From the sequence record MH560358: DNA of 64,000 nt; one strand, written 5' to 3'. A program made the translations under genes and the position numbers. Every line of letters begins with the position of its first letter. Position 1 is the stretch's first letter. Shown here in pieces: positions 20,516 through 28,100 of this stretch. The notes below the pieces were generated by a model. That model saw only the letters and a program-made list of their open reading frames with translations, did not search any database and was not told the origin of the DNA. This DNA comes from Escherichia virus KFS-EC.

Positions 20516-21484
20516 TTACATCCCTAACAGAGCGTCAAGATCATCCAGATCAGAAGCGGAGGAAGTACCGCCACCCAGGTCCAGAGATGCCATCAGGTCA
20601 TCAGCGGAAGAACTCGACGCTGCGATAGCTGCGGTAGAAACAGACGCGGCGATAGCTGAGGTAGTGCCAGCATCGAATGCATTCATCTGTGCGTCAAAAT
20701 CGTCAAGCTGGCTGTTAATCGCTGCCGCAGCACTGGAAGCCGCCGCACCAGCTACCATAGAAACGCCCATAGTTTTCTTAAATTTGGTTTCCAGTTCATC
20801 GAACGGTTTAAACTGGCTAGGCGCTACAATCTCACCCAGATCAACCATGTTTTCCATCAGATATTTCTGATATGCTTCGTCTTCAATCTTCGGAAGCTGT
20901 GATTGCTGCATGAAACGAGAATCATCATAGTTCTGGTGTTTATCAACCTTCTTAGCTTTCAGGAGGAAGTTAGCACCGGAGAACACACAAGTTACATCTA
21001 CCGGAACTTCGCCCATATCGGTATTCACGTTCACCATTGCAACGATCTTATCATAAATTTTCTGACCGAAGCGGAATTTGAATACATTACCTTCATTTTC
21101 TGGTGCTTGAGGATCTTTCAGTACCAGAATATTTGCGTAGTAAGAGGCTTTACGCTTAATCAGTTGCCATTCGGTTTTATCGGTATTGTACAGGTCTTTT
21201 TCGTTAATATATTTGCACACAGGGCAAGAATCAAAATCACCGTGGGTGCTTGAGCAGTTTTCCCAATACCATTTACCATTAACTTTGAAGGAATGGTTTA
21301 CCAGTTTCACAATCGGCAGACCGTCTTCTGTCTTAGACGGCAGGAAGCGAATCAGGGCTTCACCGTTACCTGCTGCATCAGTCTTAATCTTCCACTCTTT
21401 CGGGTCTTCTTTGGAGAAACCGTTGCCACCTTTCAGTGCGGCCAGTTGAGCTTGCAGTTTGGAAGAATCTTGGCGTTTAAACAT
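20516..21484 (-). CDS. 32: single-stranded DNA-binding protein
   Basis: Zinc-binding [14 protein letters not shown]; acidic Ala/Ser/Asp-rich C-terminus; start at internal ATG with SD AAGGA. Confidence 0.95.
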
Positions 21485-21520
21485 ATTCACTATTCCTTCT
21501 TTTGATTAATTTACTAGACT

Positions 21521-21548
21521 ATTATACAGATTTAAATTTACTTGTCAA
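21521..21548 (-). promoter_or_regulatory. sigma70-like promoter TTGACA-N16-TATAAT upstream of gene 32
   Basis: Exact consensus hexamers on minus strand. Confidence 0.55.
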
Positions 21549-22225
21549 CTATTTGTTTCGGCTTTTAATTGAGATATTTCTTTACACTCTTTAACTACTT
21601 TAACAAATAATGCTCTTGCTTTTGCGGCGTCAATAACAAGTAGTTTCTTGTACGCCTTCATTTTAACACTATAAGTTTGCCAAATCAAGTCTTTGGCTAC
21701 CTTGTCGTGTGCGTCGATTATATTTAGAAAGCTATCTAACAACATAAACGACTCAAACGATATAATCCGATTTTGCAGTAGTTTAAAGATACCGCTAGTT
21801 TCGGTTGCGGGATTGTATGTAATTAGCTCTTTAAGAGTAACCCCGCGTTTCTCTGAGAAGTATACCAGACTTTTAATGTCATCGTCAAATCGTGTTGCCG
21901 CATCAGTGATTTTACCGATGTACTCCATGTAAAACCCGTATGCGTCAACATCAGTGATTTCACCTACCCATGCATCGGTATTAGCTACCAGATTGCTTAG
22001 GAATAGGAAGTATAATTCTCTTAGATTGTACTTTTCCGCTAATTTTGCGAAATAATACTTATCTCTGCGTTTATTGAATGCGGCATTAGACAACCGCATC
22101 CTCCAATTGTATTTTACGCAATCATAACGCCCGTTCATATGAGCTTTCATCATGCAATATAACATATACACAGATTTAGCATTAATTCGCATATCTGGAT
22201 CTGGAGGAAGACGGTTTCTGATCAT
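21545..22225 (-). CDS. 59: helicase loader (gp59-like)
   Basis: 226 aa; position directly upstream of gene 32; YNWRMRLSNAAF...ISFESFMLLDSFLNIID. Confidence 0.75.
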   Translation of the reverse strand: MIRNRLPPDPDMRINAKSVYMLYCMMKAHMNGRYDCVKYNWRMRLSNAAFNKRRDKYYFAKLAEKYNLRELYFLFLSNLVANTDAWVGEITDVDAYGFYMEYIGKITDAATRFDDDIKSLVYFSEKRGVTLKELITYNPATETSGIFKLLQNRIISFESFMLLDSFLNIIDAHDKVAKDLIWQTYSVKMKAYKKLLVIDAAKARALFVKVVKECKEISQLKAETNS

Positions 22226-22234
22226 ACATACCCC

Positions 22235-22504
22235 TTAAATATCGAGAGTGTTGGTCGGTTCGTCGATCACTCCCTTCCTGAGCGTTCTATTTACTATACA
22301 TTCTTGTGTGATCTTGTCAATAATGGACACCGGAATATACTTCTGATAGTGACCATATTCGATAGAGTTTTCCTCTACAAACTGCGTTGTCGCTTCAAGA
22401 TAAGTCAATCCCTTTTCAACAACCAGTTTTTCGATTGCAAGACCGTTTGCTGTTTTGTTCGCGGCTTTTACCGCATGTTCATTAAGCATTGAACACCCGA
22501 TCAT
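22235..22504 (-). CDS. 33: late transcription accessory protein (gp33-like)
   Basis: Position and size; start uncertain. Confidence 0.55.
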   Translation of the reverse strand: MIGCSMLNEHAVKAANKTANGLAIEKLVVEKGLTYLEATTQFVEENSIEYGHYQKYIPVSIIDKITQECIVNRTLRKGVIDEPTNTLDI

Positions 22505-22757
22505 AGAGTTCTACCGCTTCGTCGCGTTCTGCTTCGAAGGTTTCTCGCTGTTGCTGGTGATACAGTTTAAACAGAATGCCCCACATTTTACCATCTACGC
22601 CTAATTCTTCTTTAGCACGCTGTTTGATCTCTTTGATCTTATCGCCATATGCTTCTTGAATGGTTTTCTGATCACTGGCTTCTTTAATCAGTTGTGCCAG
22701 GGTATTTCCGTGCACTGCTTCGTCAAATACTACTTTTTCTTTTTTCTGTTCAGTCAT
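22482..22757 (-). CDS. dsbA: DsbA-like dsDNA-binding late-transcription protein
   Basis: 91 aa; position between rnh and 33. Confidence 0.6.
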   Translation of the reverse strand: MTEQKKEKVVFDEAVHGNTLAQLIKEASDQKTIQEAYGDKIKEIKQRAKEELGVDGKMWGILFKLYHQQQRETFEAERDEAVELYDRVFNA

Positions 22758-22761
22758 AATA

Positions 22762-23358
22762 TTAACCCTCTTTCGTCATTAATTGAAAACCACGTTCAGC
22801 TTTTGAAATTTCGCTAGGACTTAAATCGTCACCAACATATTCTAGCATCATTTCTCGGATAATGTCAAGTGCTTTTTCATCACCTGATTTTAACTCGAAC
22901 TCAAGTTCATAGTGAGCCTCTCCCATTCTTTCGCCGACTTTGCAATAATAGAAAGTGTCTTTGCACATTTCCACTATAGCACCCTCAAGGTCAAGTGTCA
23001 ATGACTTGCGGTATGTCATTACTTGAAGTAAAGGAACGATAAGGTCGGAGTTTACGCCTAGACTATCAACATAGTGATAGAAATCATCCGTTGTTGAAAA
23101 AGTAATTTCTTCTCGGTTGAAGAGTCCAGATTCACTATCACCTATTTTGACCATGATCAATGATCTATTAACGTCAAGTCGAGCATAAATTCCTTTTCGA
23201 CGTAGTGCATGATCTTCGGTATCATAATAAAATTCGTGTTTTAGAGTGTTAGCACGATCTACTAGATTGTACCCGTCATACATTGCTACCCACAAATCAC
23301 AGATTGTTTCGACGCCAATTTGTGAGTGTGCATAGTATTTTAATTCAAGTTCTTTCAT
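22762..23358 (-). CDS. CYTH-like (triphosphate tunnel metalloenzyme) domain protein
   Basis: N-terminal ExExK (MKELELKY), central RRKGIYARL...VKI and C-terminal YELEFELK acidic strand pattern. Confidence 0.45.
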   Translation of the reverse strand: MKELELKYYAHSQIGVETICDLWVAMYDGYNLVDRANTLKHEFYYDTEDHALRRKGIYARLDVNRSLIMVKIGDSESGLFNREEITFSTTDDFYHYVDSLGVNSDLIVPLLQVMTYRKSLTLDLEGAIVEMCKDTFYYCKVGERMGEAHYELEFELKSGDEKALDIIREMMLEYVGDDLSPSEISKAERGFQLMTKEG

Positions 23359-23368
23359 ATGTCAACCC

Positions 23369-24316
23369 TTAGAACTCACCAATTTTCTGCAACATTTTAA
23401 CCAACGCATTTGTTACAAAATAGTTATAAATTTTACCGCGTGGTGCTGGTTTAGATTTTTCCCATGCTAACAAAATTTCATATTCGATGTTATCGGGAAT
23501 AAATTCGAAATCAATAAGTTCGCGGTTTTCGTCAAAGCGTCGTGCTTCTTCCTCTGTCATCAAAGACTTTGGATCTTCGGCATCGAAAATTTGCTCTAAC
23601 CATTTGGTTGCAATTGGTTTAGCCCTTTCTCCTTCCAGTCGTGAGATAATGAAATCACTACGGCACTTGATAGAAGCTACACCGTCTTTTGCGTCACCCT
23701 TAACACATTTTACCATAAGGTCTTTGTAAGGGCTACCATATTTGCATTTCTTCCACGCTTTCTGTACTGGCGCCCACTGTTTCACGTTTTTGTATTTGTG
23801 CAACTGTGTGTAGTCACCATCGCCTGAGTTGATCAGCACCTGGCGACCTTCGACAGAAAACTTTTTAGTTAATACAGCGATTATATCATCTGCTTCAACT
23901 TTGTCAACCTTAATAACGTGATAAGGCATGTTCTCTTTAAACTCTTCGGTGATCTTATTGATCGCAGCAAAGATCATCTCCCAATCACGCGGATCTGCGT
24001 CTCGTTTTTCCTTACGGTTGCGTTTATAGTAAGGGGCGATATCACGTCGCCAGTAACCTTTGCTTGAATCAAAAGCAAGTACCGTAATAGGGTATTGCTC
24101 TTTGAATTTTGTCATATTATAACGCATGGTGTCAAGGATAAGATGACGGATCATGCCTTCATTAATAGGATCTTCCGGTTTAAAGGTATGTGAGATAGTA
24201 GCAATCATAAGCTGCGACATATCAATCAAATGCACACCTTCCGGCAGTTTATCTTCTGGATCATCAAAGAAATCATTAAGTGTAGCGGTAGTTTTTGTAA
24301 ACGGGTTATACGTCAT
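23369..24316 (-). CDS. rnh: RNase H / FEN-type 5'-3' exonuclease
   Basis: 315 aa; acidic active-site clusters (GDGDYTQLHKY); T4-like position upstream of the tail-fibre genes. Confidence 0.85.
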   Translation of the reverse strand: MTYNPFTKTTATLNDFFDDPEDKLPEGVHLIDMSQLMIATISHTFKPEDPINEGMIRHLILDTMRYNMTKFKEQYPITVLAFDSSKGYWRRDIAPYYKRNRKEKRDADPRDWEMIFAAINKITEEFKENMPYHVIKVDKVEADDIIAVLTKKFSVEGRQVLINSGDGDYTQLHKYKNVKQWAPVQKAWKKCKYGSPYKDLMVKCVKGDAKDGVASIKCRSDFIISRLEGERAKPIATKWLEQIFDAEDPKSLMTEEEARRFDENRELIDFEFIPDNIEYEILLAWEKSKPAPRGKIYNYFVTNALVKMLQKIGEF

Positions 24317-24318
24317 AA

Positions 24319-24504
24319 TTAAGTTCTCTCCACTCTCACAACAACATATTCGCCAAACGAGTTAGATACTTCACGATCATACCCGTATTTCTCCATAACT
24401 CGCAGAATTGCATTGTTTAATTCGGCACGGAAATAATTGTAATCCTTATCTGGGATTCTGTCAACTATCCATTTTGCACCGTCTGACAAATCAACTTTAA
24501 CCAT
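24319..24504 (-). CDS. hypothetical small protein (61 aa)
   Basis: ORF track. Confidence 0.35.
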   Translation of the reverse strand: MVKVDLSDGAKWIVDRIPDKDYNYFRAELNNAILRVMEKYGYDREVSNSFGEYVVVRVERT

Positions 24505-24510
24505 AATATA

Positions 24511-25092
24511 TCATCCTCTTTTTGGAAAATTTAAATAAGCATACTCGCCAACTATTTCATGTGCTGCACGGTCATAAGCCTTAGCCGCCTCAACTTCTGT
24601 CTCAAAGTATCCTAGATGTATATTCTTTCGATTGATAACAATATACGCCTTCCACGGCTTTTTCTTGCTTGGTGATAATGATACACCTTTATATTTGCTA
24701 TGGCAAGCCTTTTTCTTTGAGACGTTAAACTGATTTTGCTGTTCGGTTGCTTCTCTCATGTTTGACGGTCTATTGTTAGTTTTGTCTTGGTCTATGTGAT
24801 CTATTCGTTCAACCTGAGTACCATACTCTAAAAACCAGACAACTCTATGTACAAACAGATTAAGTTTATGACCATTGTTGTAAAATGTAAAGTATAAATA
24901 TCCTTCTTTATGGAGACATACCCTTACCACATCACCTTTTTTGTATATGGACCCTTCTTTTCGGAATCCAGCAGCTACAGAATCCTTTAAATGGTATAAT
25001 ATTCCATCGACATGATAGAATCTACCTTTTATCGCTTTCTGTGTCTCGATATCCCAAAATTTTGTTTTTGCCACAACAAACACCACACACAA
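24511..25092 (-). CDS. HNH homing endonuclease with C-terminal AP2-like DNA-binding domain
   Basis: HRVVWFLEYG...IDHIDQDKTNNRPSNMREAT (HNH_3) plus YKGVSL...WKAYI...LGYFETEVEAAKAYD (AP2-like). Confidence 0.7.
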   Translation of the reverse strand: MCVVFVVAKTKFWDIETQKAIKGRFYHVDGILYHLKDSVAAGFRKEGSIYKKGDVVRVCLHKEGYLYFTFYNNGHKLNLFVHRVVWFLEYGTQVERIDHIDQDKTNNRPSNMREATEQQNQFNVSKKKACHSKYKGVSLSPSKKKPWKAYIVINRKNIHLGYFETEVEAAKAYDRAAHEIVGEYAYLNFPKRG

Positions 25093-25126
25093 TAAATAAT
25101 TTCATATTATAACAGGAGACCCAATA

Positions 25127-28100
25127 ATGGCAGATTTTTCTCAACATTTCAAGGCCACCTTTGGCTTTGACGCTGGTAATGAAAAGGTCGTCAATGTAGC
25201 ATACGCAGATAAAAACACATCAACGGATGCGGTCAACGTTGAATTTTTCAATTACCATAATGGTATTACTCAGTATGACACAACTCGCGGTTATGATCAA
25301 TACGGAACTACAATCTATCAAAACCGTCCGTATTATGCAAAAGAAGATATCACAAAGCCAGCAGGTGATTTTGACCCGACTAAATGGCAAGCACTGCGCA
25401 CGGACCCACGTTGGGATTATATTGCAGCAACTTCCGGTGATACTCCTTTAAAGTCTGGTGATTATATCGCAGCAGATGGTCAATTTGCAAACTTGACTTT
25501 CTCGATGCCAACTAAACCAGCAGAGGGAGACACTATAACAGTAAAAGATATCGGTGGCAAGTGTGGTGTTAACGAATTATCGTTCTTGAGTTCAGGACAT
25601 GAGTTTTACCATAACGGTAATGTGTATAACCGAAAATGGTATTGCACTACCCCGTATGCAATGAACTATTTCATCTTTGTTCGGAATCGTTGGCATGTTT
25701 ATCAGACGGGAACAGAGCCGCGCGGTGTGTACGCACAGCCAGCGATTGATGCTATTCAAATGCAGAATGGTGATCAGGTATTTCGTCGTAGTTCGTTGGG
25801 TAATATTACCTTAGTGCTTCCTAAGTTTGCCAACAATGGCGACATGATCCAGACTACAGACCTTGACGGATTAACCGCAACCAACCACGTTACGGTTAAA
25901 GTTCATGAGCACGCAGAAGAACAATCAATTGGCACGTCCGGTCTAAAAGAGATTATTGGTAAGCGTAGCGGTCATGGTGTATTCATCTTTGACAAGACGG
26001 AAAACTTATGGCGTTTGTGGGATGGTGATCAGTCTGTTCGTCTTAAACCGATCATCGATGACACTCGCTTGCAACCTAATAGCTATGTTGCTGTATTTGG
26101 TGGTCGTGATGTTACTCTGACGCTGCCAACCAATGTCGAGCCGGGTGATCGTATTCAAGTTTCTATGCAGTATATGCACGGAAACCAGAATTGCCGTATT
26201 ATCACCCCCACAGAGGATACAAAAATCCTTATGCCGAAAAACATGGTTCAGTTTCCGAAGCGTAGCGAGTACCCATTCAACGGGACCGACACATGGAAGG
26301 AAGTGTCTGAATTGTCGTTCAATGCGGCTAGTGATTATGTACCTTATCTGGAGTTCTCTTATTCAGAAGGTGATGATGGTAAGAAATACTGGTTGGTGGC
26401 ACACGCTCATCCGATCGTAGAACGAGTAGATCCGACTCGTAAAGCGCGTGTCGGTGTAATTGCACTGGCTACCCAGACTGAAACGAATAAAAACCATGAA
26501 GAGAATCCTAGCGACGAAGTTGCAGTAACACCAAAAATGCTGGCTAATAAAACAGCCAACGAAACTCGACGCGGTATTGCTCGCATTGCGACTCAAGCGG
26601 AAACGCATCAAGATACTGGTTCCAACTTCATGGATGATGTTATCGTTACGCCTAAAAAGTTAAATGACTGTGTTGCTACCGAAGCCCGTCGTGGTGTGAT
26701 GGAAATTGCAACCCAGCACGAAACCAATGAAGGTTTAGACGATACCCGCGCTATTACTCCTAAGAAATTAGAAGAACGTCGCGCTTCCGAAGATTTAGCT
26801 GGTATTGCTGAAATTGTTCAGGCTGGCGGTAGTGCTGCCGCTCGACGTGGCGAAGCTGGTACAGGGATCTATAACATCAACGACCATGCTAAAATTGTTA
26901 CTCCACAAAACATCAACGAAGTCAAGGCGACAGAAACTTCCCGTGGTGTTGGCTATCTGGCAACTGACGCGGAAGTGCAAGGGGCTACAGAATCAACCCC
27001 GCAAGATGCTTTACTAATCACGACTCGCACGCTAACGAAACGTACTGCTACCGAATCGCGCACTGGTATCGCTGAAATTGCAACCCAGGAAGAAACAAAC
27101 TTAGGTCAAAGTGATAACCATATCATCACGCCTAAAAAGCTGCATACTCGCCGCGCAACGGAAACTTTACATGGTTTAGCAGAAATTGCAACTCAGCCGG
27201 AATTTGATGCAGGTCTTGATGATGCTCGCATTTCTACCCCATTGAAGATTAAAACCTTCTTTGAGAATGCACAGCGTTTGAAAGTAGATCCGACTCAGGG
27301 GCTTAACCTTACTGGTGATTTGTGGCAAGGTATCATGATCAGCGGTCTGGATGCAACCGAAGACACAAAAGGTGTCGCTAAAGTTGCTACTACTCAGCTT
27401 ACGGATGCTGGTCAAGATGATACTACAATCATCACGCCTAAAAAGCTGCAAGGCAAAAAAGCCACCGAAGGTAAAGAAGGTATTATCCGCGTTGGTACTC
27501 AAGACGAAACCGTCGCTGGTACTATGGACAATGTAGCAATTTCGCCTAAAAACTTCAAATATGTTGTTCAGACAGAAGAAACATGGCAAGCAACGGAAGC
27601 CCGTCGCGGATTCCTGAAAGTAGCAACACAAGAAAACTGTTTTGTTGGTGATAATCTGCAAGGTTCTACTCAAGAGCTTGATGAATATCAGCATGATGGG
27701 ATTGCGGTAACTCCGAAAGGATTAAACTACGCACTTGCTAATTTCTTACCTAAAATGGCAACCGCTCAGAATAGTTTGAAATTGGGTAACGTAGAGGCCG
27801 CTAAATGGGCGCGTAGAGACATTGACCAGACCATTGAGAGCAATTACACGTTTAATAAAAACGTTAACTTGAAGGGCGATTTAGAGTGCTTAAAATCCGG
27901 TTCCTTTGAAACTCTGTTTGTGACTAAGAACTCGACTGACGATCCGAGTAATGGTCATCTGGTATTGGGTGAGCGTGGAGTTGACGGTCACACCGGAATT
28001 ACTCTGCATGGCACAACCTTGTCAGAAGGTATGGAAAACTCATGGTCTATTATCGTTGGTGGTACTGGAACGGCGCAAGCAGTTAATAGTGATGCTATCG

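Follow-up and report, generated by a model that had tools for sequence, protein, structure and literature searches.

The locus and its genes

The window, that is, the whole stretch of 64,000 nucleotides that was analysed, is a segment of a Krischvirus genome (RB49/JSE-like, Straboviridae). The gene considered here spans exactly positions 22762 to 23358 on the minus strand and encodes a protein of 198 amino acids. The original prediction had placed this ORF between rnh and dsbA, where it is indeed found, with both neighbours recognizable from their Pfam profiles:

22482..22757, minus strand: dsbA, late-transcription dsDNA-binding protein (Phage_DsbA, PF11126, E 5.4e-22)
22762..23358, minus strand: the CYTH/TTM gene, 198 aa, orthologous to RB49ORF244c and Phi1 ORF245
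23369..24316, minus strand: rnh, T4 RNase H/FEN-type 5'-3' exonuclease (PF09293, E 2.6e-37; PF02739, E 6e-18)

The slot of the CYTH gene is bounded upstream by rnh and downstream by dsbA, beyond which follow gp33, gp59 and gp32, all on the minus strand. The TAA stop codon of rnh is followed by GGGTTGACAT and then by the ATG of the CYTH gene, with an AAGGG Shine-Dalgarno sequence 7 nt upstream of this ATG. At the other end, dsbA starts 4 nt past the stop of the CYTH gene, and its Shine-Dalgarno sequence is supplied by the final codons of the latter, GAG GGT TAA. No T4 late promoters (TATAAATA) were found in the vicinity of the CYTH gene, and the gene is probably expressed together with the early replication genes. 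Sigma-70-like candidate sites were noted as well, with putative internal promoters of the TTGACA type. Over a 2.6-kb stretch around the gene, 57 phage records share 96-98% identity with the window, the best being Escherichia phage FL15 with 98.1%.

Fold and family membership

The gene encodes a protein of the CYTH "triphosphate tunnel" fold, and its resemblance to the CYTH family is far above chance. The assignment had been proposed from sequence motifs; Pfam profile, profile-profile alignment and predicted structure now agree on it. The Pfam profile CYTH (PF01928) matches residues 41-190 with 27.9 bits (E 2.5e-6), compared to a gathering cutoff of 23.2 bits, and hhalign aligns the phage family to 90 canonical CYTH proteins with a probability of 99.9% (E 6.7e-35). 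The AlphaFold2 (AF2) model, computed from a 19-sequence alignment (pLDDT 91.6, pTM 0.84), consists of eight main strands and a C-terminal helix and thus displays the eight-stranded antiparallel beta-barrel tunnel of the CYTH/TTM superfamily. Absence of a CYTH profile match and absence of an eight-strand tunnel had been named in advance as findings that would speak against the assignment; neither occurred. A Foldseek search with the model retrieves 5a60 (E 2.3e-12, TM 0.78), a structure of E. coli YgiF, which is also the only sequence match in the PDB (E 0.015 with the single sequence, 0.0029 with the family profile). Among 1.8 billion representative proteins, the family profile finds 204 relatives at E <= 0.001.

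Scans of the protein against the NCBIfam and PADLOC profiles, the latter comprising defence proteins and not phage counter-defence proteins, gave zero matches even at E values up to 10; the protein therefore belongs neither to a curated equivalog nor to a known defence-system family. Non-catalytic proteins with the TTM fold are known, namely Med18/20 and RESC1/2, and these precedents weigh against simply assuming catalysis in the phage protein.

Active-site residues and their conservation

The following segments of the gene encode the presumable elements of the tunnel:

23338..23352, minus strand: codons of E3-L-E5-L-K7, which form the ExExK motif of strand 1; E3, E5 and K7 do not vary in alignments A1 and A2 and are equivalent to YgiF Glu-4, Glu-6 and Lys-8
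23173..23187, minus strand: codons of Y58-A-R60-L-D62 on strand 3, as placed by hhalign, hmmalign of 156 homologs, two AF2 models and the motifs in PMC8233210 and PMC4641920
22888..22911, minus strand: codons of Y150-E-L-E-F-E-L-K157, last barrel strand with the ExE motif; invariant and aligned to YgiF Glu-160 and Glu-162
22768..22806, minus strand: codons of the C-terminal plug helix, S185-K186-A-E-R189-G190-F-Q-L-M to about residue 197; helix 186-195 in the model, aligned to YgiF SKAARGY

The N-terminal ExExK signature in MKELELKY had been recognized correctly and corresponds to E3, E5 and K7. The alternating acidic strand YELEFELK, with which the protein was said to end, exists as well, at residues 150-157, but it is not the C-terminus: the last barrel strand comprises residues 148-159 in the AF2 model, and two helices, approximately 40 residues, lie beyond it. 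Opposite the acidic ExE motif, a basic patch is formed by R60 on strand 3, K71 on strand 4, and R82 and R117 on strands 5 and 6.

Nine alleles that range from 98% to 31% identity have the residues E3, E5, K7, R60, K71, R82, E84 and R117 in common without variation, as well as E151, E153, E155, S185, K186, R189 and G190. Every residue that takes part in the two-metal TTM mechanism is thereby retained, even in syntenic orthologs at 31% identity. D134 varies, being a Tyr in one metagenomic relative (P0044), and the phage clade has invariant residues of its own, Y8, Y9, K40, C132 and Y138. Conservation is concentrated in the tunnel: 19 of the 45 tunnel-facing strand positions are invariant versus 3 of the 47 facing outward (Fisher p 4.7e-5), and the bias is also present inside the variable central region described below. 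When the window is compared to Phi1, dN/dS is 0.28 for the CYTH gene and 0-0.09 for dsbA, gp33 and gp59; the gene is under purifying selection, which is looser than that on these three neighbours.

Strand 3 and the position of the predicted catalytic arginine

Strand 3 is atypical, since it reads Y-x-R-x-D in place of small-x-R-x-R. Across the phage clade the pattern is Y/V/I-x-R-x-D/N, since the syntenic orthologs that are more distant carry a Val or Ile in place of Y58. Where other TTMs bind phosphate through an Arg, the phage tunnel has an Asp, and this could alter substrate, metal stoichiometry or activity.

The register of this strand decides which residue takes the place of the catalytic Arg. 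In the pairwise HMMER alignment to YgiF, Tyr-58 lies opposite Arg-56 and R60 opposite Arg-58; Tyr-58 would then occupy the catalytic position, and the enzyme could be impaired or cyclase-like. This register was rejected on the basis of hmmalign, hhalign, the ungapped N-terminal side and the hairpin geometry. When 156 homologs are aligned to the family HMM by hmmalign, column 60 is Arg in 153 of them and column 62 in 116, whereas column 58 holds a small residue. In the hhalign alignment, a two-residue gap falls in the beta3-beta4 hairpin, and the N-terminal side is gapless, the 14 residues from D46 to R60 matching those from E42 to R56 in YgiF. The same picture emerges from the models. In that of a canonical relative (P0053, in YgiF numbering), strands 54-60 and 63-69 are joined by an N61-G62 turn, and Lys-69 is paired with Gly-54 and Arg-56 with Thr-67; in the phage model the strands comprise residues 57-62 and 67-76, and K71 is paired with Y58 and R60 with M69. 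With the invariant Lys as an anchor, R60 would be the catalytic Arg, Y58 would occupy the small/aromatic position and D62 that of the second Arg. Alignments and hairpin pairing are thus consistent in suggesting R60 as the equivalent of YgiF Arg-56.

Predicted chemistry and comparison with known enzymes

In YgiF, the residues that bind the metals and inorganic triphosphate (PPPi) have been established by structure and mutagenesis: metal site 1 is completed by Glu-160, the water that attacks is activated at metal site 2, which consists of Glu-4, Glu-6 and Glu-162, Lys-69 contributes to substrate binding, and Arg-56 is essential for catalysis (Martinez et al. 2015, PMC4641920). Their counterparts in the phage protein are E153 (site 1), E3, E5 and E155 (site 2), R60 and K71. 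The protein is therefore likely to be a single-domain, soluble member of a divergent, phage-specific branch of the CYTH/TTM family that acts as a two-metal triphosphohydrolase on a small triphosphate, and not as an adenylate cyclase. By homology to YgiF, AtTTM3 and ThTPase, the catalytic activity, its metal dependence and its chemistry may be pictured as follows: The substrate would enter with a bound Mg2+ or Mn2+ ion, whose coordination is completed by E153 in metal site 1. A second metal would be held in site 2 by E3, E5 and E155 and would activate a water molecule for attack on the terminal phosphate, while K7 is a predicted phosphate binder and R60 may aid the leaving group. The products would be orthophosphate and the diphosphate form of the substrate. 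Candidate substrates are (i) inorganic triphosphate or a short polyphosphate, as with YgiF, and (ii) an organic triphosphate, nucleotide or thiamine-triphosphate-like, whose organic part would be positioned against Y58 and the plug helix.

YgiF (CYTH + CHAD, PDB 5a60/5a61) is the closest solved relative through its tunnel domain, yet the two proteins differ in several respects. YgiF has 433 residues with the CHAD domain at 221-433, whereas the 198-residue phage protein ends at the plug helix and has no Pfam CHAD match; strand 3 reads Y-A-R-L-D in the phage protein versus G-L-R-I-R in YgiF; and the beta3-beta4 hairpin is two residues shorter in the phage protein. An identity of 23-25% argues against the host gene having been captured recently. 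With D62 in place of the second Arg, the specificity may or may not be that of YgiF for PPPi. The mammalian 25-kDa thiamine triphosphatase (3bhd, 5a64) is 14-16% identical. Of its W/Y-x-R-x-R motif, the phage protein has the aromatic residue, with Y58 at the position of ThTPase Trp-53, and the first Arg, but the second Arg is an Asp. NeuTTM, CthTTM, SaTTM and BH2851, which are small stand-alone TTMs of bacteria and archaea, are remote in sequence. Superfamily, size and ExExK motif are shared with the class IV cyclases CyaB and YpAC-IV (2fjt, 3n0z), a likeness from which some phage records have their label "adenylate cyclase". The direct orthologs are RB49ORF244c and Phi1 ORF245 (PHROG 14893), 98% and 83% identical, respectively, and likewise located between rnh and dsbA; they show no substantive difference, the window carrying the RB49/JSE-type allele.

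Distribution and synteny

A tblastn search of 50,697 phage records with three family members yields matches in Krischvirus genomes only, in 57 of 57. T4 and the other Straboviridae among these records have no such gene, which is in line with the earlier impression that T4 lacks it. In one of the 57 genomes (G2494) the gene is in two pieces, so it may be dispensable. More distant members come from uncultured, metagenomic relatives (P0043, P0044 and P0045; 48%, 40% and 34% identical) and occupy the same rnh-CYTH-dsbA-33 slot, their DsbA and gp33 being 69-81% identical to those of the window. The gene thus appears to be an old resident of this slot and not a recent insertion. Among the 1.8 billion representative proteins, the nearest cellular relatives reach only E values of about 1e-12, which likewise indicates that it was not recently captured from a host. 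Its function is probably an accessory one that is peculiar to the RB49 lineage. Other viral proteins with the TTM fold are mainly capping triphosphatases of giant viruses and a few CYTH proteins of uncultured phages.

A central allelic cassette

The gene is not of uniform ancestry among Krischvirus lineages, as a comparison with the phage Skers reveals. The proteins encoded by the flanking genes are 97-99% identical between Skers and the window, versus 59% for the CYTH protein. At the DNA level, sliding identity falls from ~100% to 33-73% between positions 23328 and 22912 and is back at ~100% beyond. An identity drop between such flanks points to the exchange of a central cassette among Krischvirus lineages:

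22912..23328, minus strand: central allelic cassette of ~415 bp, approximately residues 11-149, delimited by sliding DNA identity versus Skers, protein identities and dS

Compared to Phi1, dS is 0.43 for the CYTH gene and 0.04-0.17 for the neighbouring genes; the raised value indicates an older allele introduced by recombination. The C-terminal 50 residues are near-identical across alleles. A special constraint or an overlapping signal was considered for this region and rejected, since the DNA comparison places it outside the cassette; its conservation follows from its position beyond the cassette, where recent ancestry is shared with dsbA. The Shine-Dalgarno sequence of dsbA does sit within this part of the gene.

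Alternative functions

That the protein might either make or destroy a nucleotide signal, or process triphosphate ends, had been suggested at the outset. Making such a signal is the task of class IV (CyaB-like) adenylate or nucleotidyl cyclases, with which the phage would produce cAMP or another cyclic nucleotide to reprogram its host. Such a role is very improbable, even though the enzymes belong to the same superfamily, the depositors of PHB13, AV108 and KMB43 chose the label "adenylate cyclase", and the HMMER register would put a non-basic residue at the central Arg position, as in cyclases. According to Vogt et al. 2021 (PMC8233210), class IV cyclases are marked by HFxxxxExExK, by a small residue at the position of the central Arg and by ExA instead of ExE in the last strand. 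All three signatures are missing: the protein opens with MK-ELELK, just two residues ahead of ExExK and without the HF motif; the central Arg is kept as R60 according to hhalign, hmmalign of the 156 homologs and the hairpins of two AF2 models; and the last strand retains an invariant ExE (E153-F-E155). In addition, of the bacterial CYTH proteins annotated as cyclases, most of those that were tested proved to be phosphatases (PMC3440374). The missing signatures lead to the prediction of a hydrolase of the TTM/ThTPase type, so that of the activities suggested at the outset, making a signal is disfavoured and triphosphate hydrolysis fits best. On these sequence grounds, the "adenylate cyclase" label in the three records is probably an over-annotation, whereas "inorganic triphosphatase", as used for Ec_Makalu_002, is plausible. 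Less improbable than a cyclase, but still quite unlikely, is a polynucleotide 5'-triphosphatase that removes the gamma-phosphate from 5'-triphosphate mRNA or from pppAC Okazaki primers and thereby feeds decay or primer removal. The capping triphosphatases Cet1 and those of mimivirus and vaccinia have the same fold and are the commonest viral TTMs, and the gene adjoins rnh inside the replication cluster; pppAC-initiated Okazaki primers are handled by RNase H. Adjacency to rnh is nevertheless weak evidence, because lineage-specific ORFs are common between the conserved core genes of T4-like genomes and T4 has no CYTH gene there. The Pfam search gives CYTH (PF01928) alone, without a match to mRNA_triPase (PF02940), and instead of a tunnel open to a polynucleotide 5' end, as in Cet1-like enzymes, the protein has a conserved C-terminal plug helix, which shuts one tunnel end in small-molecule TTMs (PMC4641920).

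A third alternative concerns the role of the protein and is compatible with the chemistry of a triphosphate hydrolase: the tunnel may destroy, or as a non-catalytic sponge sequester, a triphosphate signal or immune nucleotide of the host, for instance an alarmone, the triphosphate of thiamine or adenosine-thiamine, or a linear oligonucleotide with a 5'-triphosphate, and the rapid turnover of alleles would reflect an arms race. This counter-defence role is unlikely; in decreasing order of probability, the alternatives rank as signal erasure or counter-defence, RNA 5'-triphosphatase and class IV cyclase. In its favour are the sharp divergence hotspot seen in Skers (59% versus 97-99% in the flanking genes), the clean edges and raised dS of the exchanged cassette, a fast-evolving surface around a fixed tunnel, the Tyr at the position that serves in ThTPases for stacking against the organic part of the substrate, and the limitation to one lineage, as is typical of accessory genes. 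Several observations argue in the opposite direction. In T4-like phages, gene segments are commonly replaced in a mosaic manner even where no arms race is involved, and a dN/dS of 0.28 indicates purifying and not positive selection. Y58 is a Val or Ile in distant syntenic orthologs, so aromatic stacking is not conserved clade-wide. No PADLOC model matches, in a library of defence and not counter-defence proteins, and the literature search gave nothing in support; for a sponge in particular, the intact metal-binding glutamates favour an enzyme instead. A more specific form of the idea is a shade less probable again: rather than a housekeeping PPPase, the protein would be an enzyme of host interaction and erase one particular organic triphosphate made by the infected cell, recognized in a pocket with Y58 and D62, and the cassette would be the footprint of the arms race. 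The target might, for example, be the triphosphate of thiamine or adenosine-thiamine, a nucleotide resembling an alarmone, or a (d)NTP of immune signalling. If true, the TTM fold would here serve in counter-defence or signal erasure for the first time in a phage.

For jumbo phages, it has been speculated that CYTH and MazG triphosphatases degrade unmodified NTPs (Iyer et al. 2021). Clearance of unmodified NTPs on behalf of a phage with modified DNA was rejected for the present gene: Krischvirus phages mostly have canonical cytosines, among them RB49 and TB34, and SAP and TB34 differ in modification but carry the same CYTH allele.

Earlier annotations and significance

The CYTH assignment itself is not new. 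The GenBank note of RB49ORF244c (AAL87844.1) reads "similar to P45267, P30871, HI1598, ygiF", and Nolan et al. (2006; PMC1524935) list the same ORF with a CYTH domain (E 0.0026), so that the RB49 ortholog was flagged as ygiF-like and CYTH in 2003 and 2006. The assignment is well supported but unsurprising and already public, whereas PHROG 14893 is still of "unknown function". A literature search covering the function of phage CYTH/TTM proteins, anti-phage roles and the Phi1/RB49 comparison returned nothing on the gene beyond the 2006 table, and no functional study of this gene or of another phage CYTH protein was found. What goes beyond the earlier annotations is the exclusion of a cyclase function, the unusual Y-x-R-x-D motif of strand 3, the synteny that extends to distant relatives and the exchangeable allelic cassette. 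An appropriate annotation would be "CYTH/TTM family triphosphatase (substrate unknown)"; "hypothetical protein" understates the evidence.

CYTH enzymes are ancient and widespread, yet little has been learned about what they do physiologically, even in E. coli. Here, a phage lineage keeps a CYTH gene in a fixed slot, with the active site frozen and the rest turning over fast. Interest in the gene would be much greater if the substrate were a signal of the host. The system is tractable for finding the substrate in vivo: the phage is a lytic coliphage of 164 kb with E. coli K-12 as host, natural alleles of 31-98% identity are at hand, and nature has provided one disruption.

Exchanged and apparently mosaic segments in and near the CYTH gene

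In the CYTH gene, which encodes a predicted triphosphate tunnel enzyme between rnh and dsbA, the central ~415 bp share 33-73% DNA identity with the Krischvirus phage Skers, and the first 30 nt and last 150 nt of the gene, together with all neighbouring genes, are ~100% identical to it. The dS of the Phi1-type allele is raised (0.43; 0.04-0.17 for the neighbours). As judged from these DNA comparisons, the central segment is an exchanged allelic cassette. A further short segment of apparently mosaic character resides in rnh, the gene for the T4-type RNase H, where a patch near the 3′ end has 57-80% identity to both Skers and RB49, the remainder of the gene being 93-100% identical.

22912-23328: central cassette of the CYTH gene, ~415 bp, defined by DNA identity to Skers
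23449-23538: low-identity patch inside rnh, ~90 bp, near the 3′ end (C-terminal domain)
24511-25092, minus strand: homing-endonuclease ORF with HNH and AP2 domains, 193 aa (PF13392, PF00847, PHROG 99)

The profile matches of the homing-endonuclease ORF (PF13392, E 1.6e-12; PF00847, E 3.6e-8; PHROG 99) identify a gene flanked on one side by a homolog of RB49ORF246c (24319-24504) and on the other by gene 34 (from 25127). Since the alignment to JSE, RB49 and most relatives ceases at approximately 24522, the ORF is, on this comparison, an insertion present only in some Krischvirus genomes; it is common to FL15, ELT4, G37-3, FL20, PHB13, pEJ01 and PTE-Eco09, among others.

The CYTH allele in other Krischvirus phages

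The Krischvirus phages SAP and TB34 are 99.96% identical, yet differ in cytosine modification status, and the genus is without a recognisable modification pathway (PMC13390438). Both phages carry the same CYTH allele; therefore, the CYTH gene does not explain their difference in modification. The window belongs to the same genus as these two phages.

In vB_EcoM_G2494 (MK327935.1), the sole Krischvirus genome with such a split, the CYTH gene (146593-147185) is matched in two pieces, annotated as two hypothetical proteins. A frameshift or a sequencing error accounts for the split; a genuine split would point to the gene being dispensable in culture.

Promoter motifs

In the region 21400-25300 (minus strand), 23 sigma-70-like promoter matches were found, an excess over shuffled sequences (12.2 +/- 3.0). 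In eight of these, the -35 hexamer is a perfect TTGACA; all eight are on the coding (minus) strand, and they include the five sites listed below. The match upstream of gene 32 is situated where an early promoter is annotated in RB49.

23907-23880, minus strand: perfect match (12/12), inside rnh
21548-21521, minus strand: perfect match (12/12), upstream of gene 32
23365-23337, minus strand: match overlapping the CYTH start codon
23001-22973, minus strand: match inside the CYTH ORF, upstream of dsbA
22868-22839, minus strand: match inside the CYTH ORF, upstream of dsbA

Across both strands of the whole window (64 kb), only three copies of TATAAATA, the canonical T4 late-promoter octamer, are present (5.4 expected by chance), and no copy lies close to the CYTH gene. 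The window contains late genes, gene 34 among them.

6722, minus strand: TATAAATA octamer
24893, plus strand: TATAAATA octamer
30202, plus strand: TATAAATA octamer

ORF overlap and start codons

As is also the case in RB49 and Phi1, the ORFs of dsbA and gene 33 overlap by 23 nt (22482-22504). For gp32, the listed ORF begins with a GTG at 21490; an in-frame ATG (MNMFKRQ...) lies two codons downstream of it and is therefore probably the true start.
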